Shown in pieces: positions 253 through 14,579 of a DNA stretch of 32,057 nucleotides. Made by a program: the position numbers and the translations under genes. Within the stretch, counting starts at the first letter, position 1, and every line of letters starts with the position of its first letter. The stretch is from Candidatus Heimdallarchaeota archaeon (GTDB lineage Archaea > Asgardarchaeota > Heimdallarchaeia > Heimdallarchaeales > Heimdallarchaeaceae): assembly GCA_016839945.1 (NCBI GenBank), contig JAEOTE010000125.1, positions 1 to 32,057 of the forward strand, written 5' to 3'. A model generated the notes under the pieces. That model did not search any database. It worked only from the letters and a program-made list of their open reading frames with translations, and was not told the DNA's origin.

Positions 253-3200
253 ATGAGATTCCAGATAGGAAAAAACAGAAAATATGTTATTTTATTTCTA
301 ACGATATCATTACAGCTGTTAATTGTTTCATCTTCTTCTAACAATTTTTTATTGGTTCAAGCATCAAAATTTGAAGTTGAAAATCCAACGAAGTATGATT
401 CAAGTTTTTCAAATAATGTTTATCCAAATATATTTTCGAAAGAAGATATAAAGTACAACCCAATCAATAACGTTACTGGAGCAGGTTCAAGTTTTACAGC
501 AAAAGATATTTTGAATGTTTATGATGAACAGAATCTAAATTTGACATATAATGTTGGAAATGAAAATTTTGAAGATATTTATTTCATTAATCCAATCTCT
601 GGGTATACTCCTTATTCCCTACAATATAATTTAACAAGTATAACAGCAAAAACTGATTGGTATCCAGTTGAAAGCAATACTGATGGTACTGAAATTGAAA
701 TTGGATATAATGCAGATAGAATTGCTGCAGCACAGGCATTCGAAGTAAAATGGGACTATGCTTTATTTTTGGGTTCAAAAATCTATCTTAAGTATTTAGG
801 AAATACAGGAGCTCAGAATCTTGAATTAATTATAGTTAAAGCTGATGAAATTTCAGGTTATCCTAATATGAGTTATGAATATACAAATGACACAAATGAT
901 CCTTATAATAATGCTAATCAAATTCCTGAGAGTACAATAGATAACATTGTTTTCTACAATTTCACTGATGTAATTCTTGAAAGAGGTACATATTTTGTAG
1001 TAGCAAATGTTACTAATCCAGTAGCATCTGCTAAAAATTTTGATTGGTTTGGAAATACTCTAGGTGATGATGATGGAGATACTTATTTTAGATCACTTAA
1101 TGGTTCTTGGTCTTTAGAAGTTGCAACTGATTTAACATGCATTCCATTATTACTCCCATCAGATGAGTTTGGAAATCCTTTGGAAATTACAAATCCTTCT
1201 AATATTTATCTCCAAGATAATGGGGGGGATATTCTAAGTATTACTCACTCAATTACTTCAATAGGTAGTCACACTCTTACTAGTAATACTTCAGTGGAAA
1301 TCTCATTCAATAATTCTTATTCATTTAGTTTAGACAGAGCTGTATCTTCTAGTTATCAAGCTTTTAATTCCACTTATGGTGATTTCTCAATTTATTGGAA
1401 TTTAACATGGAGTGTAGAATTTGCTGATCCTTCTCCTTACTCTCTATACAACAGAACATTCTTAGTCTCTGTTCCAAATGACTGGTCATTAATTTCAACT
1501 TGTTATTATAATGAATCAGATATTCTTAGTTCAGTGAAAACTGCTGAAGGATATTTGTGTGGTTTTGGTTTTAATTCTTCAGCAGGAGATTTAAGACTGG
1601 AAACAACAAGCACAAACTACATCCAAAATCTGAATCTCATCAGAGATAGTTTACCCTCACAGTATTATTATTTAGGGTATTGGACAAATGATGGAGAGAC
1701 AGCTTTTGGTCATCCTGGATCTACAATTACAGCTGATCTTACTATAAGTAACGCAGTAACAACTGGAGAAATGAATTTCACAGTATGCAATCCTGATGGC
1801 ATTTTGTTACCTTTGAAAAGCTCTTTACCTGCTAATCTTTCATATGTTGATACAACAGAATATACTCAAAGTGGAATTACTTATTCAAGTCCAGGTATTT
1901 TTACTTCAAGCATAACATTTGATCCCTCAGTGTATGGAACAGAAGTTGTTGGTACTTGGTCAGCTTTTATTTATTGGAATAATGGAACTGAGGTAGGGAT
2001 TTTTTCTAAAGAGATATATGTTCAATGTGCTACTCGTTTCAATATCTCTTGGGAAGAAACTCCAGGTAATAATCAATGGTTATCTGATACTGAAGGATCT
2101 ATTCTACGTAAGAATGGTGATTTGCTAAATTTACGAGCTACTTATTCATCAATAAGTGAGCCTTATTTTGATGAGTATGGTCTTTCTATTCCTAATTCAA
2201 ATATTACATACTCAACAAGCTGGGGATTGTCAGGGAATTTCAGTAGTAATTATCCTAATTATAATCTGACATTTATCGCTTCAGCAACAGCAGGAATGCA
2301 TTCAATTGATGTAAATACGTATGATAGTTTCTGCGAACCTCATTCTCATTCATTAGATATCGAAATATTCAATATATATAGGATTGAACCTCGTGAAACC
2401 GATATTAAAGTAAATTCTACTGATAATTTAGTTATAGCATTTAGTATGATAAATGAAACAGATCCAGCTGAAGGAGTTATCTTCCCAGATTCGGTTGAGC
2501 TTTTAATTAATAGTAATCCTGTTTCTAGTGGTTTTTATACGCAAGATACTGAAGGTGATTATACTACACTTTCAATCAGGATAGGGACTTATGGTATAAC
2601 AGAAGGAACTGCGAATGTTACAATTTTAGTTACAAAAAGTAATTTTAGATCTGGATATTCTATTCAACCTGTTTCCTTTGATTTTGAGGTTCAAGTCTTC
2701 CCCGGTTCTACACCTTTTGAATTTCCATTTTATTACTACATAATTATTGGAGCTGGTATTTTAGTTATTTTCTTATTAACTATATCATTAATCTCTGTCT
2801 CTAGATCAAGAAAGAAAATTCCAACAACATTTGTTGATACAACAGATAAAGCAAAAATTGTTGGATTACTTGACAGTGTTTTATCAATGAAGAAGATTCT
2901 CTTTATCCATTCAGAAACAAGTCTCCCTGTTTATGATCTAGATATTGGCGAAAAAACAGAAGTTGATACAACATTGATTTCAGGTTTTCTCAGTGTTGTT
3001 GGACAAATGGGAAAAACAATAGGAGGTAGTGATACAGGTGATATTAGAAAGCTCGAATATAGAAATTTTGTAGTAAATGGTGTAAGCTCGGAAAATTATA
3101 CTGTTTTTCTCTTCACAACATCTGATATAATAAAAGAGTTTACTGCTAAACTTTTTGATTTAGTCATGTGGTTTAATTACACTTTTCCTATAAATCAGGA

Positions 3201-3513
3201 AGCTTGGGATGGTAACAAAGAAACATATGTAAAGAATAAAAGATTAATCGAAGATAAAATAGCTGACTCTTTATATTTATGGATTTATTTCCCACTTGAG
3301 GTAAATCCAAGAAAAGAAAGTGAAGTAAAGAAATTAAAAGAAGTAAATCCAAAAATAGTTGCATTCATAAAGAAAAAGAAACAAATAACTCTTAGCACTT
3401 TAATTACTAAATTCCAAGAACAATCTCTAGAAGCAGTTTTGACTTCGTTTTTCACAATGGTAAATAGTGGATATCTAAGAAGAAGACAATTTCAATCATT
3501 TACAAATACGTAA
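253..3513 (+). CDS. Large type I membrane surface glycoprotein (receptor-like): signal peptide, beta-rich ectodomain, one TM, cytoplasmic longin-like domain plus winged helix
   Basis: Hydrophobic N-terminal signal; S/T/N-rich ectodomain with many N-x-S/T sequons; TM YYYIIIGAGILVIFLLTISLISV followed by basic SRSRKK; cytoplasmic ILFIHSETSLPVY...DTTLISGFLSVV...IRKLEYRNFVV pattern typical of Asgard longin-like domains. Confidence 0.8.
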   Translation: MRFQIGKNRKYVILFLTISLQLLIVSSSSNNFLLVQASKFEVENPTKYDSSFSNNVYPNIFSKEDIKYNPINNVTGAGSSFTAKDILNVYDEQNLNLTYNVGNENFEDIYFINPISGYTPYSLQYNLTSITAKTDWYPVESNTDGTEIEIGYNADRIAAAQAFEVKWDYALFLGSKIYLKYLGNTGAQNLELIIVKADEISGYPNMSYEYTNDTNDPYNNANQIPESTIDNIVFYNFTDVILERGTYFVVANVTNPVASAKNFDWFGNTLGDDDGDTYFRSLNGSWSLEVATDLTCIPLLLPSDEFGNPLEITNPSNIYLQDNGGDILSITHSITSIGSHTLTSNTSVEISFNNSYSFSLDRAVSSSYQAFNSTYGDFSIYWNLTWSVEFADPSPYSLYNRTFLVSVPNDWSLISTCYYNESDILSSVKTAEGYLCGFGFNSSAGDLRLETTSTNYIQNLNLIRDSLPSQYYYLGYWTNDGETAFGHPGSTITADLTISNAVTTGEMNFTVCNPDGILLPLKSSLPANLSYVDTTEYTQSGITYSSPGIFTSSITFDPSVYGTEVVGTWSAFIYWNNGTEVGIFSKEIYVQCATRFNISWEETPGNNQWLSDTEGSILRKNGDLLNLRATYSSISEPYFDEYGLSIPNSNITYSTSWGLSGNFSSNYPNYNLTFIASATAGMHSIDVNTYDSFCEPHSHSLDIEIFNIYRIEPRETDIKVNSTDNLVIAFSMINETDPAEGVIFPDSVELLINSNPVSSGFYTQDTEGDYTTLSIRIGTYGITEGTANVTILVTKSNFRSGYSIQPVSFDFEVQVFPGSTPFEFPFYYYIIIGAGILVIFLLTISLISVSRSRKKIPTTFVDTTDKAKIVGLLDSVLSMKKILFIHSETSLPVYDLDIGEKTEVDTTLISGFLSVVGQMGKTIGGSDTGDIRKLEYRNFVVNGVSSENYTVFLFTTSDIIKEFTAKLFDLVMWFNYTFPINQEAWDGNKETYVKNKRLIEDKIADSLYLWIYFPLEVNPRKESEVKKLKEVNPKIVAFIKKKKQITLSTLITKFQEQSLEAVLTSFFTMVNSGYLRRRQFQSFTNT

Positions 3514-3617: not shown

Positions 3618-6600
3618 TTGGATTCAAATTTATCAAGTGCTAAGAGAATAATTAACCGAGTATTCACTGTGTATTTATTGGTTTTAATCACTTTATCTAC
3701 AATCAGCTATTCTACTTTGGGTAGTCAAACTAACAATTATTTTAACATTACAAGTAATCCAGATTCATTTACGAATATATTTCAGAATGATTTTAACGAT
3801 AAGATAAAATTCCAGGGTAGTGGTTATGATTATACTCCAATAGCTAGCATCATTTTTAATGGTAGCACTTTTTCAACTAGTGAAAATATGGATGTAGAAC
3901 ATTCTATTATTACATCTACAAAGTATGTGAATCCAACAACTCGTTCAGCTAGTTTAGATATTCCTGCTCCAACTGGATACTCGGATGTTTCATTGGATTA
4001 TAATATAACGAACATTGTAACTATAGAAGACTATTATAGAATAGAAGAAGTGGGGACAGCTCCTTATGAATTGAATAAAGATCAAGATATTGCTTTAGCA
4101 CAAGAATTTGAAGTGTTCTGGGATTATGCGATCTTCACTGGGGCTAATATGACTTTCGACAATAATCGCGTTGGTGATTTTGGGACCTATCAAATGGATT
4201 TGTTCATTGTTAATTCTACTGGTTCAGCTCCAAATGTGACTGATGTATCAAATGTTTTGAGTTATTGCCTTTCTTCCCCGTTTAACGAAAGTAACTATAG
4301 CATTCTTGATGATACAATGAAATTCTATGATTTTGAGGATATAATTCTTGTAAAAGGCAAATATTTTGTTGTAGCAAATCTCACTGTAATTGATTCAGGA
4401 AATGATAGTGAATTTATCTGGGGAGGAAAAACAGGAACTAAAGATTCTGAAACCTATTTCAGAGACAATGGAGGTTCATGGAGTGCTGGTGTGAATGTTG
4501 ATTTATCATTATTTGCAAAATTACTTCCATCAGATGAATCAGGTTTTCCTTTAACAATTACAGATCCAACTACTATAGAACTTGAAGATGATGGTAGCCC
4601 AGTATCTTCATTAACAGGTTCAATTACAAGTGGTTCTCACACATTAACAAGTAATACTTCCGTACAAATAAGTTATGAGAACAATTATGTTTTTCAAAGG
4701 TTATATGTAAGCAATTCAGAGATAATGGCATCCAACTCTAGTTATCTAGATTACACAAATCAATGGAATGTTAGTTTTGATATAATTGAAGAAGTCGATA
4801 CAATATACACAAACATTAACAGGACTCTTCTAATTCCAACTCCTGATGATTGGGAATCAATAACTTTTTCACTTTATTGGAATAGCTCTTTGCTTTATTC
4901 AGAAAGAGTTAATGATGGGTATGAATTTTACCTTAATGATTCCATTTATGGTGGAAGTTTTGTTCTTAGAACAGAAAGTCCTAATTATATTCAAAATCCT
5001 ACTTTTTCAGATGATGTGGAAGTAACAGAAAATTATGTTTTAGGAACTTGGACTCCTCATCCAACAGGAGATAATGCTACTGGAATACCCGGTTCAACTA
5101 TTTTTACGGAAGCAGGAGTAAAGAATATTTCTACAAGCGGTGGAACATTTAATTTCACCTTATTCAATAGTAATGGAGAAATTATTCAACAAAAAAATTA
5201 TACAGAATTACTTACAATAGATCTAATCTATAATGATGTCTCTAATTATTCGGGTATTGGTTATATTGATGGAAGTGTTTACAAACATAATATAACTATT
5301 GATCCTTCAGTATATGGAACTGATGTAGAAGGTTATTGGACAGCTGTTGTATTCTGGCAAAATGGAACTGAAGTAGGAATGTTTTCGAAAAGAATAGCAG
5401 TTGAAAAACCTACCTTAGCAGAATTTGAATGGGAAGAAACTTTAGGCCTGAATGACTGGACTAATGATACATTTGTTGAACTTAAAAGAATAAACGGTCA
5501 TGGTATAGATGCTAATATTAAATACTATAACACAAGTGATCCATTTTTCACAGGCGTTGGTTCTGAAATTCCAAGCGCAATAGTGTATTATAATGCCACT
5601 TGGGGAGATTCTGGATTATTCAATTTTGGAGCTTCTGAATACAATAAAGATATTATGACTAATGCATTGATTGGAACGTATAATATTAGTTTAACTGCAT
5701 CTGGCCCATTTCTAGAAACACATACAATTGAGTTCTCAATAAAAATAATCCATCAATTTGATATTAATCCAGAAAGAAATAATTATTATGTTAATTATAC
5801 AAATTCTCTCAATGTTAGGTTTGGCTTAAGAGATATTTCTTATGGAAATGAACTAATCACTCCTGATACACTAGATCTAGTTCTTAATGGGAATCCATTA
5901 ACACTATCAAATTATTCCTATGGTTATACTGACAATCTCATTGATATTTTACTAAACACTAACAGTTTAGGACTCGATATAGGAGATCACGAACTGGAAA
6001 TAACGGTTACAAAAAACGATTTTGTTGCTGATTATGGTGTAATTTCAACAAGTACGAGTACCACTATTACAGTAACAGAAATTCCAACTATGATTGAAGT
6101 TGTAGATATCGAAACTGAATTAGACATCAATACTCAATCATCTCTTTCCTTCAAAATTATTGATACCAATCATTCTGCTGATATCTCTGGTGCATCATTT
6201 GATGTAATTTTTGATCTCCCTGAAGTTGAGCTAATAGAAAAGCACGAAACAAATGGAATTTATACTATAACTTTCAGAGTTAATGAACCAACAAAAGCAA
6301 CGCTAAACATTTACCTAAATATAACAAAATCAGGATATGAAACAAAATTAAATTATCGAATACCAGAAGCAATAACGATAGATATTCCTGGACCTGGAAT
6401 ACCTCTAGGAGTTCTAGTAGCGTTAATAGCAGTAGCTGTCGTAATAGGTGGAGGAGCTGGTACTTTCTTCTTTTTAAGAGCAAGAAGAAGAACAAGACAA
6501 AGACTGTTAATTGAAAAGAAAGAAAAAGCAAGAAATCTTTTCCAAAGTGCGTTTATGATTAGGAAAATACTTGTTGTACATCATGAGACAAGTCTTCCAG

Positions 6601-7166
6601 TTTATGAAATGAGTATGGAAGAAAATATCGGTTTAGATTCCTCAATGATTACTGGAGTATTGCAAGCAATTTCCTCAATAGGAATGGAAATGATTGGAGC
6701 TCCAACAGGAGTTAAGAAAATAGAATATTATGGTTTTGTAGTTACAAGTGCTTATAGTGGTGCTTACACAAGCTATGTGTTTTCAGAAACTGAATTAGAT
6801 CCTGAAATTGTAAAAGGTGTATCAAATCTAGCAAAATGGTTTGACGTTATATTTGGTTATGATTCAGAGCAGTGGGATGGTTCAATGGATCTATTCAATG
6901 AGTATAAAGATACCATAAATGAAAAGGTGTTTCAAGAGCTATATCTTTGGTTAGTTTATCCAATTGAACTAGCACCTGACACAATGAGAAAATATGAAAG
7001 TTTCTCTCCAATAAACAAGATGATTGTTGACTTCATTAATAGTAAGGAGAAAACCACAGTTATGGTACTGTTGGACAATATAAATGATTTTGATGATGAA
7101 GTAATTCTTAGTAATATAATTGAATTAGTAAAGAAAGAGATGATAATTACTCACACAAATGATTAA
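3618..7166 (+). CDS. Paralogous large type I membrane glycoprotein with cytoplasmic longin-like domain plus winged helix
   Basis: Collinear with 253..3513: AQEFEVFWDYAIF vs AQAFEVKWDYALF, DPSVYGTDVEGYW...WQNGTEVG vs DPSVYGTEVVGTW...WNNGTEVG, HHETSLPVY vs HSETSLPVY, LYLWLVYP vs LYLWIYFP. TM GIPLGVLVALIAVAVVIGGGAGTFFFL followed by RARRR. TTG start. Confidence 0.8.
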   Translation: MDSNLSSAKRIINRVFTVYLLVLITLSTISYSTLGSQTNNYFNITSNPDSFTNIFQNDFNDKIKFQGSGYDYTPIASIIFNGSTFSTSENMDVEHSIITSTKYVNPTTRSASLDIPAPTGYSDVSLDYNITNIVTIEDYYRIEEVGTAPYELNKDQDIALAQEFEVFWDYAIFTGANMTFDNNRVGDFGTYQMDLFIVNSTGSAPNVTDVSNVLSYCLSSPFNESNYSILDDTMKFYDFEDIILVKGKYFVVANLTVIDSGNDSEFIWGGKTGTKDSETYFRDNGGSWSAGVNVDLSLFAKLLPSDESGFPLTITDPTTIELEDDGSPVSSLTGSITSGSHTLTSNTSVQISYENNYVFQRLYVSNSEIMASNSSYLDYTNQWNVSFDIIEEVDTIYTNINRTLLIPTPDDWESITFSLYWNSSLLYSERVNDGYEFYLNDSIYGGSFVLRTESPNYIQNPTFSDDVEVTENYVLGTWTPHPTGDNATGIPGSTIFTEAGVKNISTSGGTFNFTLFNSNGEIIQQKNYTELLTIDLIYNDVSNYSGIGYIDGSVYKHNITIDPSVYGTDVEGYWTAVVFWQNGTEVGMFSKRIAVEKPTLAEFEWEETLGLNDWTNDTFVELKRINGHGIDANIKYYNTSDPFFTGVGSEIPSAIVYYNATWGDSGLFNFGASEYNKDIMTNALIGTYNISLTASGPFLETHTIEFSIKIIHQFDINPERNNYYVNYTNSLNVRFGLRDISYGNELITPDTLDLVLNGNPLTLSNYSYGYTDNLIDILLNTNSLGLDIGDHELEITVTKNDFVADYGVISTSTSTTITVTEIPTMIEVVDIETELDINTQSSLSFKIIDTNHSADISGASFDVIFDLPEVELIEKHETNGIYTITFRVNEPTKATLNIYLNITKSGYETKLNYRIPEAITIDIPGPGIPLGVLVALIAVAVVIGGGAGTFFFLRARRRTRQRLLIEKKEKARNLFQSAFMIRKILVVHHETSLPVYEMSMEENIGLDSSMITGVLQAISSIGMEMIGAPTGVKKIEYYGFVVTSAYSGAYTSYVFSETELDPEIVKGVSNLAKWFDVIFGYDSEQWDGSMDLFNEYKDTINEKVFQELYLWLVYPIELAPDTMRKYESFSPINKMIVDFINSKEKTTVMVLLDNINDFDDEVILSNIIELVKKEMIITHTND

Positions 7167-7255: not shown

Positions 7256-7594
7256 ATGAAAAAATTGTTATTTGTTATTTGGACTGATAATAAAGGAATT
7301 TTTACACATATCATGATGAATGTTTTGGATTTAAATGAAAAAGGATATGAAGTTGGTATTGTCTTTGAAAGCGAAGGATGCAAACTAGTGCTTCATTATG
7401 ATGAGAATGAAAACGATAAATTTGAAAAAATAAAGAAACTAAACTTAGTAGCGTCCGTTTGCAAAGTTTGTGCAAAAGGAATGGGAGCTCTTGAGTCAGC
7501 TGAAAAACAAAATCTTCCAATACATGATGATTTGTTTGGTCATACTCCTCTCGAAAAATGGATTGCAAATGGTTACGAATTAATTTCAGTTTAA
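7256..7594 (+). CDS. DsrE-family small protein (sulfur relay/redox-like)
   Basis: 112 aa with V.IVFESEG, CKVCAKGMG and C-terminal GH...NGYELI pattern of DsrE-like proteins; GGTGA ribosome-binding motif just upstream. Confidence 0.7.
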   Translation: MKKLLFVIWTDNKGIFTHIMMNVLDLNEKGYEVGIVFESEGCKLVLHYDENENDKFEKIKKLNLVASVCKVCAKGMGALESAEKQNLPIHDDLFGHTPLEKWIANGYELISV

Positions 7595-7668: not shown

Positions 7669-9183
7669 ATGTTGAAACATAAAGAAGGAAAAAAATGGAT
7701 TGTAGCTTTCTTCACTCTATTCTTGAGTGTAGTTGTTTTTGAATCATTATTCTTACTTCTAATTCCTATGCATTGGGAGTTTAATGATTTCTTATCAGAT
7801 ACCTTAGGTATTAATACTAATTACGCCCTTATAATCATACTAATATTTTGTATTCCACTAATATATTCTATTTTCTTTTTAGTAAGAAATTTGATTTTCA
7901 TTAAAAGGGAAGATAAAACAGATCCTGCTCTAGTAAATAAGATATTATCGATTTTGCTTTTTGTAATCACAATAGCTTTGCTTATTACTCTCATTCTTCT
8001 GTTTGGTGAAGATTCTGTAATAATTATACAGCTTTTAGAATATTATAGTATATTTCTTTTTATGGTAATAATTGTTGGATTTATTGTACTATTATATCCT
8101 CTAGTACCTGAAATAATTAGATTTATCAAGAAACCTGTTAAACCTTTATTTCAACCAAAAGCTAAGAAATACACAATCCTGTCATTCTTCTTTTTGTTTT
8201 ATATATGGATCCTAGTTATGCCTATAATCTTTCCACCAACAAACGTAATTAAAGGAGAACTTCCCCCAAAACCGTTGATAATAGCTCATAGAGGTGGAGC
8301 ACATTATGCTCCAGAAAATACATTAGCTGCAGGGATTTACACATCAAATATCCAAGCTGCAGGCTGGGAAATAGATGTAAGAATTAGTAATGACGGAATC
8401 CCCTTCCTAATGCATGATGATACTTTGGAAAGAACTACTAATGTTTCTGAAGAATTTCCAAGTCGTATTGATAATAGATCAGAGACATTCACCATTTCTG
8501 AACTTAAACAACTTAATGCTGGTAAATGGTTTGTAGACAATGATCCTCATGACACTATAAAGAAGGGGAGAGTTCCGAGCTCTTTAATTGAAATCTACAA
8601 TGTTGCAACTATTCCGACCTTAGAAGAAGCTTTGAATTTTTCACGAGATAATAACCTAATAATTAATGTTGACTTTTATGGTCCTAAAAATGATCATCCA
8701 TACTATAATCAGTACTTCAATACTTGCTTCTCAGTACTAGCAAATGCTGGAATAGATGAATTGATATGGTTGACATCATATAATGAGGAATGGTTAGAAT
8801 ATACAATGAATAATGCACCTAATATGAAAGCAGTTCTCTCAGTAGGTCTTTCTGATAATGTAAACTTGGAAGAATTCAAAAACTCAGGATATGATATGAT
8901 TAACACACATCATGGAAGATCAAATAGACTCTATAGAGCTGCAGCTGAAGATGGCATCTCAATAAATGTGTGGACAGTTGACCTTTCATCCAGATTTCAA
9001 CAGGTGTGGACTCTGGGAGTAACATCAGTAACAACGAATGAGCCAATTGTTTTTATTGAGATGGCTAAACCTAATTGGATAATTCAAAGACCAATTTACA
9101 TAGTTATTTGGCTATTAGTTGACTTAATTGGTGTTAGTTCAATTTTAGTTGCCAGGTATATTAGAAGTAAAAAACAAATATAG
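7669..9183 (+). CDS. Multi-pass membrane glycerophosphodiester phosphodiesterase, GDE2/GDE3/GDE6 (GDPD5/2/4)-like
   Basis: GDPD motifs AHRGG, APENT, WEIDV and FLMHDDTLERTT; about five N-terminal TM segments and one C-terminal TM. Confidence 0.9.
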   Translation: MLKHKEGKKWIVAFFTLFLSVVVFESLFLLLIPMHWEFNDFLSDTLGINTNYALIIILIFCIPLIYSIFFLVRNLIFIKREDKTDPALVNKILSILLFVITIALLITLILLFGEDSVIIIQLLEYYSIFLFMVIIVGFIVLLYPLVPEIIRFIKKPVKPLFQPKAKKYTILSFFFLFYIWILVMPIIFPPTNVIKGELPPKPLIIAHRGGAHYAPENTLAAGIYTSNIQAAGWEIDVRISNDGIPFLMHDDTLERTTNVSEEFPSRIDNRSETFTISELKQLNAGKWFVDNDPHDTIKKGRVPSSLIEIYNVATIPTLEEALNFSRDNNLIINVDFYGPKNDHPYYNQYFNTCFSVLANAGIDELIWLTSYNEEWLEYTMNNAPNMKAVLSVGLSDNVNLEEFKNSGYDMINTHHGRSNRLYRAAAEDGISINVWTVDLSSRFQQVWTLGVTSVTTNEPIVFIEMAKPNWIIQRPIYIVIWLLVDLIGVSSILVARYIRSKKQI

Positions 9184-10274: not shown

Positions 10275-11399
10275 TTGAGAATAATATCAAAAGGTGTTGT
10301 GATTTTGAACACTAAAAATGATGAAGAGTACATAATTGAGCAGTTCACTATTGAGAAAGATGAATTTGAAGAGTACTCGAAATTAATCACTCAAGCATTC
10401 CTAAGTGATGAAAATGCAATACAAGAAGGTGCAACTGTAGCATTTTCAGAGGACACTTTCAATATGGTGTTTGGTGCTCCTTCCATTTACAATAATTTAT
10501 TTATCAGAGCGATTCATAAATCATCAGGACAGATGGTTGGTTTCTTAGGAGCTATTCCTCGAAATCTTTCAATTTTAGATAGTATTTACAAATTCGCTAT
10601 CCTTGCATGGCTCTGTGTTCATTCTGATCATCAGAGAAAAGGTTTAGCAAAGAGGATGGGTAAGAAAGCATTTGAGATAAGTCTTAATACTGATTATGAT
10701 GGAGGATTTTCTTTTCATGAACCTAAACAGCATGGAATAGATGTTTCAACATCTGTATCCAGAGAACTGAAAATACCTCTTCAGACAATAGCAACCCTGA
10801 CTAAATTCGTCATTAAAGCGTTTGATGTAGATAAAGTTTCTACTGTAGTTAAACTAAGGTGGTATGAGAAACTAGTATTCAGATTTTTTGAGAAAGTAAA
10901 AACTGTTGATTCTAAGCAAATAAGAAATCATCTAGAGAAAGATATACCAGCTATGTTTGAGATAATTCAAGAGCAGGTAAAACGACATCAAGTATCTATT
11001 GTACCTGATTTAGAGGATTTCAAATGGATGCTAAAGAATCCCAACGTGAATTGTGTTGTTCATGAAGATAACAAAGGCAAAGTAAAAGGCTTTATGCTAG
11101 CTTGGGAATTCATTCTTGCAGGTATGGGCAACCAAGTCCCATATGGCTGGTTAGATATGGTCCACATACACAGATTGAATACTGAAGAAGCTAGCAACTT
11201 AGCGAATTATTTGTGTCAAACATCAAAGAAACGAGGATGGTTAGGATTGCAAACACCATACATCCCTTATTTTGATTTTAAACCATTGAAAAAAGCAAAA
11301 TTCTTCTCCTTCAGTTATAAAATAAATATTGACATTTTCAACTTGAAGAATGTACCTATACCTGAAGAAGTTGAATCTATCTATTTTGATTGGAGATGA
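10275..11399 (+). CDS. Double-GNAT acyltransferase resembling glycylpeptide N-myristoyltransferase (NMT)
   Basis: GNAT acyl-CoA-binding motif LCVHSDHQRKGLA; second GNAT-like half; segments match recalled NMT motifs (VGFLGAIP, KDIP, GKVKGF). The true start may be a few codons downstream. Confidence 0.7.
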   Translation: MRIISKGVVILNTKNDEEYIIEQFTIEKDEFEEYSKLITQAFLSDENAIQEGATVAFSEDTFNMVFGAPSIYNNLFIRAIHKSSGQMVGFLGAIPRNLSILDSIYKFAILAWLCVHSDHQRKGLAKRMGKKAFEISLNTDYDGGFSFHEPKQHGIDVSTSVSRELKIPLQTIATLTKFVIKAFDVDKVSTVVKLRWYEKLVFRFFEKVKTVDSKQIRNHLEKDIPAMFEIIQEQVKRHQVSIVPDLEDFKWMLKNPNVNCVVHEDNKGKVKGFMLAWEFILAGMGNQVPYGWLDMVHIHRLNTEEASNLANYLCQTSKKRGWLGLQTPYIPYFDFKPLKKAKFFSFSYKINIDIFNLKNVPIPEEVESIYFDWR

Positions 11400-13643: not shown

Positions 13644-14579
13644 TTATGGAATTATGAAAGAAAAAACCAGTTGAACAATTAGGAGAACAAAAGATACTGT
13701 AAAGAGAGACCAAACCAGTTTTTTATTCCAATTAGCTATGTATCTTCCATTATTCAATCCAAAAGGAAGAAGATTGAATATCAAATATATGTAGAAGAAA
13801 GTTGCGAGTATATTAAATCCTGAAAGAAAAATTGTTGGTAGTACTTGTATTCCAGCAAGAACTAGAATGTTAAATATAAAAATCAAAGCTTGCCAAAATA
13901 GAATCCAAACTACACCAGTTAGTGCAACTATACCTCTTTCTTTATTCCTATCGTCCACATCTCTAAAAACTAGAAAGCTTGGTAAGATGACAAATGGAAT
14001 TAAAACACTGAATAAACCTACAAGGAATCCTTGCAGCCATAAGACATGACCACTTCTTACTCTCAAATTACGTGCAGCAATATTTTCAGCTACCATGTGT
14101 CCACCATATATCAATCCTATACTAACAAAATATATCAGCACAATCCAAGCTGTAGTTATATTTAGGGAAGCTCCTTTGAATAGAGTTTGATCAACTATAA
14201 AATGAAGGGTCATTATTACAAATGCATAGAAAGTAGCAGCTATTATGTTTACAAAATTATAATTGAAAGAGAAAAGTGAGAACATAGGAGACCTAAGAAG
14301 GAATCTATCTCGAGGTTGAAAAAATACAGATTTTTGTTCAGCATCTCTGGGACTCAGATAATCTGAACGTTCGATTCTCTTCGGTGGTTCTTCTTCTACT
14401 CTCTTAACAACGGGACTTACTTTAGCTTTCTTGTACTCGTCAGTTTGATAAATTGCTATTTTTAGACAATCATGCTGCTCTGGTAATCTATGTTTAGCAC
14501 AATAGTACTGACTACATAGCTTACATTTGAATGGTAAAGAATCTTCTTCTTCACAATCTGGATAAGAGCAACCTTTCAT
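13644..14579 (-). CDS. AN1-type zinc finger fused to a degenerate M50 (site-2 protease)-like membrane domain
   Basis: CSYPDC...LPFKCKLCSQYYCAKHRLPEQHDC is a zf-AN1. The C-terminal multi-TM domain has GIVALTG and FNLLPFGLNNG...WN resembling archaeal M50 motifs but lacks HExxH. Confidence 0.75.
   Translation of the reverse strand: MKGCSYPDCEEEDSLPFKCKLCSQYYCAKHRLPEQHDCLKIAIYQTDEYKKAKVSPVVKRVEEEPPKRIERSDYLSPRDAEQKSVFFQPRDRFLLRSPMFSLFSFNYNFVNIIAATFYAFVIMTLHFIVDQTLFKGASLNITTAWIVLIYFVSIGLIYGGHMVAENIAARNLRVRSGHVLWLQGFLVGLFSVLIPFVILPSFLVFRDVDDRNKERGIVALTGVVWILFWQALIFIFNILVLAGIQVLPTIFLSGFNILATFFYIYLIFNLLPFGLNNGRYIANWNKKLVWSLFTVSFVLLIVQLVFSFIIP

Follow-up and report, generated by a model that had tools for sequence, protein, structure and literature searches.

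The analysed window, a 32,057-nucleotide stretch of contig JAEOTE010000125.1 from a Candidatus Heimdallarchaeota archaeon, contains a gene for a membrane protein that the initial annotation described as a full-length archaeal counterpart of the animal enzymes GDE2, GDE3, and GDE6. These enzymes have been studied as animal regulators in neuronal differentiation, Wnt and uPAR signalling, and neurodegeneration. The locus raises the questions of how far the resemblance extends, what the archaeal protein would act upon, and how archaea and animals came to share the family. No description of prokaryotic members of the six-transmembrane (TM) GDE family, or of Asgard archaea in connection with GDE2/GDPD, was found in the open-access papers searched.

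Architecture of P0001

The open reading frame at positions 7669..9183 of the + strand starts with ATG and, according to the ORF list and its translation, encodes a product of 504 residues, P0001 (stop codon included in the coordinates). The ATG is the right start codon because homologues align from residue 2–3 to the end. The N-terminal membrane module (residues 8–187; 7690..8229, +) is formed by five helices, which were delineated by hydropathy, the positive-inside rule, the helices of the predicted model, and a profile match of the TM region alone. Hydropathy places the TM cores at residues 14–32, 54–72, 92–110, 128–146, and 170–188, followed by the GDPD domain and TM6 at 476–494. The AlphaFold model of P0001 (pLDDT 93.4, pTM 0.90) contains the same six long helices, those of the membrane module spanning residues 8–30/32–46, 52–81, 88–125, 127–154, and 164–187, and the five-helix module packs confidently against the barrel. 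Loop 1 of the module contains the motif EFNDFL, and residues Y66 and K91 form a signature shared with eukaryotes.

The GDPD catalytic barrel (residues 199–466; 8263..9066, +), predicted to be extracytoplasmic, was assigned from Pfam domain PF03009, which spans residues 207–459 with an E-value of 7e-28, and from a fold match to 2pz0 with a TM-score of 0.87 by target. The subfamily insert LNAGKWFVDNDP and the motifs DHPY and WTLGVTSVTT are located in the barrel. The sixth TM helix (residues 474–497; 9088..9159, +), defined by hydropathy, alignment, model, and residue table, comes after the conserved junction P468-x-W470 and leads into a short, basic tail, ARYIRSKKQI, which is predicted to be cytoplasmic. 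Every archaeal motif quoted in the initial annotation is present in the translation of P0001.

The numbers of lysines and arginines in successive loops are 4/0/5/0/7/(GDPD)/4, and according to the positive-inside rule the protein is therefore oriented N-in, GDPD-out, C-in. The GDPD domain is thus predicted to face the outside of the cell, as had been proposed from the sequence, and both termini are predicted to be cytoplasmic. Hydropathy, the positive-inside rule, and the AlphaFold helices agree on the order of five TM helices, GDPD domain, and one TM helix that had been described at the outset.

Homology to the animal enzymes

The similarity of P0001 to animal GDPD5-like and GDPD2 proteins is far beyond chance: in a search of 1.84 billion proteins, named animal representatives of both matched residues ~10–496 with E-values of 2e-42 to 1e-46. 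GDE2 (GDPD5), GDE3 (GDPD2), and GDE6 (GDPD4) are, like P0001, composed of five TM helices, an extracellular GDPD domain, and one more TM helix, and are 24–31% identical to it over about 480 residues. The alignment is colinear from TM1 to TM6, and the motifs in common include FN-x-[FY]-L in loop 1, the LNAGxWF..DP insert, HPY, W..GV.SVT[ST], and P-x-W ahead of TM6. P0001 has the same catalytic residues as the animal enzymes (His, Arg, Glu, Asp, His, and Asp), which are ecto-phosphodiesterases of GPI anchors, lyso-PI, and glycerophosphodiesters. It differs from them in its length (504 residues, against 540–650), by two extra residues in the insert of the catalytic domain, and in the lack of both the cysteine-rich cytoplasmic N-terminal extension and the long C-terminal trafficking tail. 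The extension and the tail are missing from all Asgard members in the alignment; they are vertebrate regulatory additions rather than features that define the family.

The homology includes the membrane module. When the TM region of the Asgard proteins was aligned on its own to that of animal GDE2/3/6, hhalign returned 96.1%, an E-value of 3e-9, and a score of 64 over 146 columns, whereas the reversed alignment scored 16, column shuffles up to 14, and block shuffles up to 29. Five polar or aromatic positions of the module, N39, Y66, K91, P185, and P190, are kept across Asgard archaea and eukaryotes. The model of P0001 superposes on a chordate GDPD5-like cluster with a TM-score of 0.81 over 480 residues, so that the predicted fold, together with the catalytic residues, matches that of the animal enzymes. 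P0001 is a full-length homologue of GDE2/GDE3/GDE6, as the initial annotation had claimed; the end-to-end animal matches, the homology of the TM regions, and the similarity in predicted shape all bear this out. Close homologues are 79–82% identical to it, and conservation of the family extends to hundreds of sequences.

The annotation had also compared P0001 to strings given for human GDE2. EFNWYL, LGPKPALIGHRG, LNAGQWFLKTDP, WCAGVPSVTS, and PLWIM occur verbatim in P0221, P0198, and P0215, unnamed representatives whose neighbours in the tree are named vertebrate GDPD2 proteins, whereas FLMHDTTLRRTTNVEEEFP and YCLMWVTADLV do not occur verbatim, the closest string being FLMHDATLRRTTN.

Other GDPD proteins resemble P0001 in part. 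In the PF10110 (GPDPase_memb) proteins of Bacillota, a GDPD catalytic domain is likewise joined to a polytopic membrane domain, but the membrane module and its arrangement differ; PF10110 has no match in P0001 at E <= 1 in the Pfam search, and the model of P0001 superposes on these proteins with TM-scores of 0.53–0.54 over about 340 residues. The soluble or periplasmic GlpQ/UgpQ enzymes (PDB: 2pz0, 5t91, 1ydy) share the barrel fold and active-site residues of P0001 but lack a TM module, and form the outgroup in our trees. The scores of P0001 against the NCBIfam equivalogs are far under their cut-offs (UgpQ-type NF006989, 89 bits against 264; GlpQ-type NF008354, 51 against 254). The trees separate the six-TM clade, including its Anaerolineae proteins, from the soluble GDPDs with 99–100% support, and P0001 falls into one clade with GDE2/3/6 (100% support against soluble GDPDs). 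The three outcomes that would have refuted the initial reading of P0001 as a GDE2/3/6 counterpart, namely grouping with bacterial membrane GDPDs, a cytoplasmic catalytic domain, and a TM region that does not align with GDE2, were each checked, and none was borne out. Searches of the PDB by sequence and by fold returned soluble GDPD domains only, and no structure of a six-TM GDE.

Distribution and phylogeny of the family

The six-TM GDE is an accessory gene with a patchy distribution across Asgard lineages, Anaerolineae, and a limited set of eukaryotes. Of 251 genomes of the Asgard phylum, 29 carry it; they belong to 5 of 28 families, and the gene is missing from the other genera of the window's own family, two single-contig genomes included. 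Further members occur in Anaerolineae bacteria, Mastigamoeba, the ichthyosporean Chromosphaera, unidentified protists, and animals. A match labelled 'Nanopelagicaceae' was rejected as an actinobacterial member, since it nests inside Promethearchaeota and most likely represents a mis-binned contig.

The Anaerolineae proteins (Chloroflexota; Anaerolineaceae, Brevefilum), whose sole annotation is 'glycerophosphodiester phosphodiesterase family protein', belong to the same family and have the same architecture as P0001, to which they are 29–35% identical over the full length (hhalign of the TM region alone, 96%, E 1e-9). They differ from P0001 by an acidic C-terminal tail of 70–100 residues and, in the membrane module, by tryptophan in place of Y66, alanine or phenylalanine in place of K91, and a two-residue insertion in loop 2. 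Their genes have conserved neighbours, encoding a PfkB kinase, a C_GCAxxG protein, and a SulP transporter, which give no hint of function.

The chances are about even that eukaryotic GDE2/3/6 did not come from an Asgard gene, and that horizontal transfer instead distributed the family among anaerobes of sediments, between bacteria and Asgard archaea in either direction and from a prokaryote into the amorphean or holozoan line at an early stage. The gene of the window would then be just one accessory copy rather than an ancestor-like one. The patchy occurrence among Asgard genomes and the small number of known eukaryotic carriers are in agreement with such a history. Eukaryotes together with Anaerolineae are the best topology under LG models (95–96 support), and the catalytic domain of the bacterial proteins resembles its eukaryotic counterpart slightly more (35.3% vs 31.8%). 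Approximately unbiased (AU) tests of 37 rows, which used LG+F+G4, a model under which long-branch artefacts are likelier, rejected the nesting of eukaryotes with the window's Heimdall-type group (p 0.0002) but not a grouping of eukaryotes with Asgard archaea (p about 0.14). Under a site-heterogeneous model, however, the tree does not settle how the four clades branch, and the membrane module speaks against such a history: the eukaryotic module scores 64 against Asgard archaea but 34.7, within the range of the controls, against bacteria, and its Y66 and K91 are shared with Asgard proteins only. The bacterial range is moreover confined to one class, whereas the Asgard range covers several.

Active site and candidate substrates

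Residues H207, R208, E216, N217, E234, D236, H249, D250, R255, and D335 are invariant or nearly so among 101 family members and are kept in Asgard archaea, Anaerolineae, and eukaryotes alike. The histidine and arginine of the HRG motif, the second histidine, and the acidic metal ligands of the GDPD domain are all intact in P0001. H207 and R208 are the equivalents of GDE2 H233, GDE3 H229, and GDE3 R230, mutation of which kills activity (PMC7033719, PMC5576486, PMC11314389). P0001 is apparently a catalytically competent enzyme. Animal GDE3 is a Ca2+-dependent ecto-enzyme that works in cis on lipid substrates.

P0001 is probably a membrane-integral phosphodiesterase of the GDE2/GDE3/GDE6 type whose metal-dependent action is directed at lipid headgroups on the outside of the cytoplasmic membrane. 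Five TM helices would be followed by the GDPD barrel on the outer face and by the sixth helix, and the conserved TM bundle would position at the membrane surface a divalent-cation-dependent active site that is predicted to comprise two histidines, one arginine, and acidic metal ligands. The reaction at this site may be the hydrolysis, in cis, of the phosphodiester in a glycerophospho-alcohol headgroup. Judged by analogy, a lipid headgroup is the likeliest substrate; the enzyme could attack archaetidylinositol, one of its glycosylated forms, or another membrane lipid or lyso-lipid, or else a glycerophosphodiester set free in the vicinity. The cleavage may be PLC- or PLD-like, comparable to the action of GDE3 on lyso-PI and glycerophosphoinositol and of GDE2 on glycerophosphocholine.

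Archaeal lipids consist of ether-linked isoprenoid chains on sn-glycerol-1-phosphate, and because of this backbone their stereochemistry differs from that of known GDPD substrates. The genome encodes an inositol-3-P synthase (TIGR03450, E 1.8e-85) and an archaetidylinositol-phosphate-synthase-like protein (157 bits), which makes cleavage of inositol ether lipids by P0001 plausible. The synthase-like gene is, however, present in 246 of the 251 Asgard-phylum genomes, as compared to 29 that carry GDE, and therefore inositol lipid alone fails to explain which genomes are carriers.

A less likely role, though one that deserves some weight, is that of a nutrient-scavenging ecto-glycerophosphodiesterase equivalent to GlpQ, which would cleave soluble diesters from decaying biomass for the uptake of phosphate, glycerol-phosphate, or alcohol, with the TM module as a mere anchor. 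The Asgard, Anaerolineae, and Mastigamoeba carriers are mostly anaerobic sediment heterotrophs, and a patchy, accessory occurrence is in keeping with a nutritional gene. Among solved structures, soluble GlpQ/UgpQ-type enzymes are closest in fold, and soluble GPC and GroPIns are also hydrolysed in vitro by GDE2 and GDE3. Nevertheless, an anchor needs no more than one TM helix or a lipobox, yet the conserved five-helix module has been kept, and no transporter or glycerol-phosphate metabolism gene was seen as a conserved neighbour at eight Asgard loci.

Surface proteins and lipid anchors

Upstream of the GDE gene and on the same strand are two large S/T/N-rich ORFs, in accordance with the described position downstream of surface-glycoprotein genes; a small DsrE-like ORF (7256–7594) lies in between. 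At their C-termini, these upstream glycoproteins have a TM helix and a cytoplasmic tail; hence, they are not lipid-anchored. None of the neighbours of the window's GDE gene recurs beside homologues at the eight Asgard loci.

It is improbable that the six-TM GDE module was born in Asgard archaea as a trimmer or releaser of surface glycoconjugates anchored by inositol phospholipids, was handed on to the stem of the eukaryotes, and was recruited there for the cleavage of GPI anchors; eukaryotes would in that case be the sister group of all Asgard members together, a placement that the AU test does not reject. If this were true, surface-anchor shedding would be a pre-eukaryotic, Asgard-derived trait.

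Still somewhat less credible is the reading of P0001 as an ancestral anchor-shedding enzyme that frees archaeal surface proteins from GPI-like lipid anchors, which would date regulated shedding to before the eukaryotes. It draws on the full-length homology to the GPI-cleaving GDE2/3, the predicted outward-facing catalytic domain, the inositol-lipid synthesis genes, and four matches to PIG-L-family deacetylases in the genome. PIG-L is, however, a generic deacetylase family. Searches of the 88%-complete genome for Gaa1 (PF04114), C13/GPI8 peptidase (PF01650), and PIG-A (PF08288) gave no match; the Gaa1 search is weak because its control matched none of the prokaryotic control genomes. The host, with its archaeal lipids, differs from animals in having no detectable GPI-protein machinery. 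The adjacent glycoproteins are TM-anchored and are not conserved neighbours, and the nesting of eukaryotes with the Heimdall-type group was rejected. Two archaeosortase-family genes in the genome leave room for surface proteins that carry a lipid anchor of a different type. GDE was considered as the releaser of archaeosortase anchors and rejected, since the two do not co-occur across Asgard families: in family f13, archaeosortase is found in 4 of 54 and GDE in 13 of 54, with one overlap, and in family f26 in 0 of 5 and 3 of 5, respectively.

The initial annotation had gone further than homology in proposing that the enzyme releases lipid-anchored surface proteins and that anchor shedding has pre-eukaryotic roots. 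Neither shedding of GPI-anchored proteins by P0001 nor inheritance of the enzyme by eukaryotes from archaea is supported, given the GPI transamidase and PIG-A searches, the TM-anchored glycoproteins upstream, the presence of the family in Anaerolineae, its patchiness in Asgard archaea, and trees that do not resolve an Asgard–eukaryote sister relationship. That the ORF was wrongly called, or that P0001 is a pseudo-enzyme devoid of catalysis, is hardly conceivable: nothing was found in favour, P0001 retains every catalytic and metal-binding residue, all of them invariant, and the close homologues at 79–82% identity, the hundreds of relatives, and the high-confidence model speak against it.

Significance

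For eukaryogenesis, the six-TM GDE is one more candidate membrane-surface enzyme common to Asgard archaea and eukaryotes; it is not yet countable as an Asgard-derived eukaryotic signature protein because it is accessory, is also present in Anaerolineae, and may have been transferred in any direction among these lineages. The compact archaeal and bacterial homologues, which are about 500 residues long, tail-less, and confidently modelled, would be attractive targets for structure determination. They would equally lend themselves to work on the way in which lipid substrates are brought by the TM bundle to the active site of the GDPD domain.

Architecture and family membership of the GDE protein

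The GDE protein is encoded by an open reading frame of 504 codons that begins with ATG (7669-9183, + strand), in a window with a G+C content of ~31%. A Pfam scan identified a PF03009-type GDPD domain (residues 207-459, E 7e-28) as its sole domain, with no match to the bacterial membrane domain PF10110, and the protein scores far under the NCBIfam cut-offs of the UgpQ (89 versus 264) and GlpQ (51 versus 254) equivalogs. Kyte-Doolittle analysis places five hydrophobic cores before the GDPD domain (14-32, 54-72, 92-110, 128-146, and 170-188) and one after it (476-494), which bears out the initially annotated layout of five transmembrane helices, GDPD domain, and one transmembrane helix. The loops, from the N- to the C-terminus, contain 4, 0, 5, 0, and 7 lysines and arginines before the GDPD domain and 4 after it. 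By the positive-inside rule, this pattern cleanly predicts a topology with both termini inside and the catalytic domain facing outwards, as had been proposed.

The nearest relatives of the protein are Heimdall-type Asgard proteins with 55-82% identity. An exhaustive HMMER search against 1.84 billion representatives returned 120 proteins at E <= 1e-30. Exact look-ups identified several of the full-length matches as GDPD5-like proteins from a crinoid, starfish, snail, and tunicate, GDPD2 from birds and Polypterus, and an unnamed annelid protein, all of which (E 2e-42 to 1e-46) span query residues ~10 to ~496. The architecture by which the literature defines GDE2, GDE3, and GDE6 is the same as that of the window's protein. 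Sixteen aligned Asgard, Chloroflexota, and animal proteins are colinear from the first to the sixth transmembrane helix. They have in common FN-x-[FY]-L in loop 1, LP-x-KP-x-[IL]-x-HRG, FLMHD..L.RTTN, the LNAGxWF..DP insert, HPY, W..GV.SVT[ST], and P-x-W, with Y..IW after it in the sixth helix. These are the subfamily features listed in the initial annotation; most of the strings that it gave for human GDE2 occur verbatim in vertebrate-clade representatives, and two longer ones are only approximate.

The membrane module is alignable on its own. Profiles of 11 Asgard and 10 animal N-terminal regions, restricted to the transmembrane part, were matched by hhalign with a probability of 96.1% (E 3e-9, score 64, 146 colinear columns), whereas the reversed-alignment control scored 16, column shuffles (n=30) <=14, and 20-column block shuffles (n=30) <=29. 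The Asgard and Anaerolineae modules match similarly (96.4%, score 66), and the score of Anaerolineae versus animals (50.9%, 34.7) is within the control range.

Predicted structure and active site

The AlphaFold2 model of the GDE protein, built from a 101-sequence alignment, has a mean pLDDT of 93.4 and a pTM of 0.90, and contains a barrel and six long helices. When clusters of the ESM Atlas were searched by shape, the protein matched one from Promethearchaeota (TM-score 0.88) and a chordate 'GDPD5-like' one (0.81, 480 residues, rmsd 3.7), whereas Bacillota GDPDs with PF10110 reached only 0.53-0.54 over about 340 residues, which together with the lack of a PF10110 match separates the protein from the bacterial membrane GDPDs. 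Sequence and fold searches of the PDB found no solved structure of the six-helix module, and the sole matches were soluble GDPD domains, such as 2pz0 (TM-score 0.87 by target).

The inactivating mutations GDE2 H233A, GDE3 H229A, and GDE3 R230A all lie within the HRG motif (PMC7033719, PMC5576486, PMC11314389), which corresponds to H207-R208 in the window's protein. The Asgard, bacterial, and eukaryotic members retain these two residues with little or no variation, along with E216, N217, E234, D236, H249, D250, R255, and D335. The architecture, membrane-module profile, fold, and conserved catalytic residues make membership in the GDE2/3/6 family, as a full-length archaeal counterpart, well supported, and indicate that the enzyme is probably active.

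Distribution of the family

Among GTDB species representatives, full-length relatives are confined to Asgard archaea (Promethearchaeota, Helarchaeota, Thorarchaeota, and an 'uncultured archaeon') and Anaerolineae (Anaerolineaceae, Brevefilum, and 'Chloroflexia'), besides one copy labelled Nanopelagicaceae. Its contig, DATKTW010000045.1, carries tandem six-helix GDE genes (L006:2971-4527 and L006:4641-6013); as the first nests within Promethearchaeota, the contig probably comes from an Asgard genome and was mis-binned, and we do not regard the copy as actinobacterial.

The gene is accessory within the window's phylum: 29 of the 251 sampled genomes carry it, as do 12 of the 89 high-quality ones, and 5 of 28 families are represented. 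Of 19 other genomes of the genus, 10 have it; none of six genomes from other genera of the family does, two of which are single-contig assemblies. The window's genome has one copy and, elsewhere, one weak, unrelated GDPD match. Another genome of the phylum carries a full-length homologue (G242:C178:6955-8460, - strand) with one in-frame TGA, which could reflect a pseudogene, sequencing error, or recoding.

The eukaryotic range extends past animals, which make up the remaining named members of the eukaryote clade, to the ichthyosporean Chromosphaera perkinsii, the anaerobic amoeba Mastigamoeba balamuthi, with three gene models (P0126, P0169, and P0228), and a microbial eukaryote on a 39.6-kb ENA metagenome contig (L083:6001-7527). 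Two Mastigamoeba models, g12355 and g12357, are near each other on one scaffold, and an 886-aa model aligns with the archaeal protein at three separate places, pointing to a tandem fusion or merged gene model. The gene on the metagenome contig is intron-less and lies ~1.5 kb from genes for a Glyco_transf_22 (ALG9/ALG12/PIG-B-type) mannosyltransferase and a C2orf69-family protein.

Phylogeny and origin

The six-helix proteins form one clade relative to soluble GDPDs (support 99-100%). LG+C20 PMSF analysis supports Asgard (96), Anaerolineae (100), holozoan and protist (92), and long-branched Mastigamoeba (100) groups, with no supported branching order among the four; LG models rooted on soluble GDPDs pair eukaryotes with Anaerolineae (95-96). 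AU tests, performed with a site-homogeneous model on 37 sequences, reject neither eukaryotes with Asgard (ΔlnL 7.3, p 0.14-0.15) nor Asgard with bacteria (p 0.14). Had eukaryotes simply inherited the gene by vertical descent from a Heimdall-like ancestor, they should nest with the Heimdall-type sequences to which the window's protein belongs, and this placement was rejected (ΔlnL 45.4, p-AU 0.0002). Descriptive signals conflict: eukaryotes are tied to Asgard by the membrane module and by residues Y66 and K91, whereas the eukaryotic catalytic domain is slightly nearer to the bacterial than to the Asgard one (35.3% versus 31.8% identity). Because of these clashing signals and the scope of the AU tests, the 'pre-eukaryotic roots' proposed initially are neither established nor excluded; the homology to GDE2/3/6 holds, and archaeal ancestry is one candidate origin.

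Substrate and function

The ecto-PLC GDE3 depends on Ca2+, cleaves lyso-PI and GroPIns, and attacks GPI anchors in cis; GDE2 is PLD-like. By analogy, the best-supported mechanism is that the conserved transmembrane bundle would place the metal-dependent active site of the GDPD domain at the outer surface of the membrane, in position to cut the glycerophospho-alcohol headgroup of a lipid, lyso-lipid, or nearby diester. Inositol lipids are plausible substrates, as the genome encodes an inositol-3-phosphate synthase (TIGR03450, E 1.8e-85; PF01658, 71 bits) and a CDP-alcohol transferase with archaetidylinositol-phosphate synthase as its top match (157 bits versus a cut-off of 180). A gene of the latter kind occurs in 246 of 251 genomes of the phylum, and such near-universal presence leaves the patchy occurrence of the GDE gene unexplained. 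The protein may instead scavenge soluble diesters, although its retention of the elaborate five-helix module speaks against a purely anchoring role of the helices.

Shedding of lipid-anchored proteins, initially suggested alongside cleavage of inositol ether lipids, is not supported by the gene content of the genome. No C13/GPI8 peptidase or PIG-A domain was found in the 88%-complete assembly, nor was Gaa1, in a weak search whose control matched 0 control genomes; the four PIG-L-family genes belong to a generic family. The two ORFs upstream of the GDE gene (253-3513 and 3618-7166, + strand) encode paralogous proteins of 1086 and 1182 aa without Pfam matches, each with an N-terminal signal or anchor and an S/T/N-rich ectodomain (27 and 32 N-x-S/T sequons). 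Both end in a C-terminal transmembrane helix (LYLWIYFPLE and LYLWLVYPIE) and a ~60-aa cytoplasmic tail, and thus are predicted not to be lipid-anchored. Their adjacency carries no weight, since neither they nor any other neighbour of the GDE gene turned up next to its homologues at 8 Asgard loci. Release of archaeosortase-anchored proteins was rejected because archaeosortase/exosortase-family genes, two of which occur in the window's genome (G000:C62:38278-38970 and G000:C40:949-1551), do not follow the GDE gene across the phylum. They are present in 23 of 25 sampled genomes of the family and few elsewhere in the phylum.

Other genes of the window and significance

A 374-aa ORF (10275-11399, + strand) matches the N-myristoyltransferase N-terminal domain (PF01233, E 1.8e-9) and encodes an NMT-like enzyme; it also matches GNAT acetyltransferase families. 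At the N-terminus of a 311-aa ORF (13644-14579, - strand) lies a zinc finger of the AN1 type (PF01428, E 1e-12), for which eukaryotes are the best-known source.

The GDE family is known and the architecture is the same; the new part is its prokaryotic membership. Homologues are publicly annotated as generic 'glycerophosphodiester phosphodiesterase family protein', and a few carry the JGI label 'glycerophosphoinositol inositolphosphodiesterase'. A search of an open-access library found no paper tying Asgard archaea or other prokaryotes to GDE2/3/6. The prokaryotic proteins are useful models for a family of enzymes that is important in animals, and the gene is a cautionary candidate among those common to Asgard archaea and eukaryotes.
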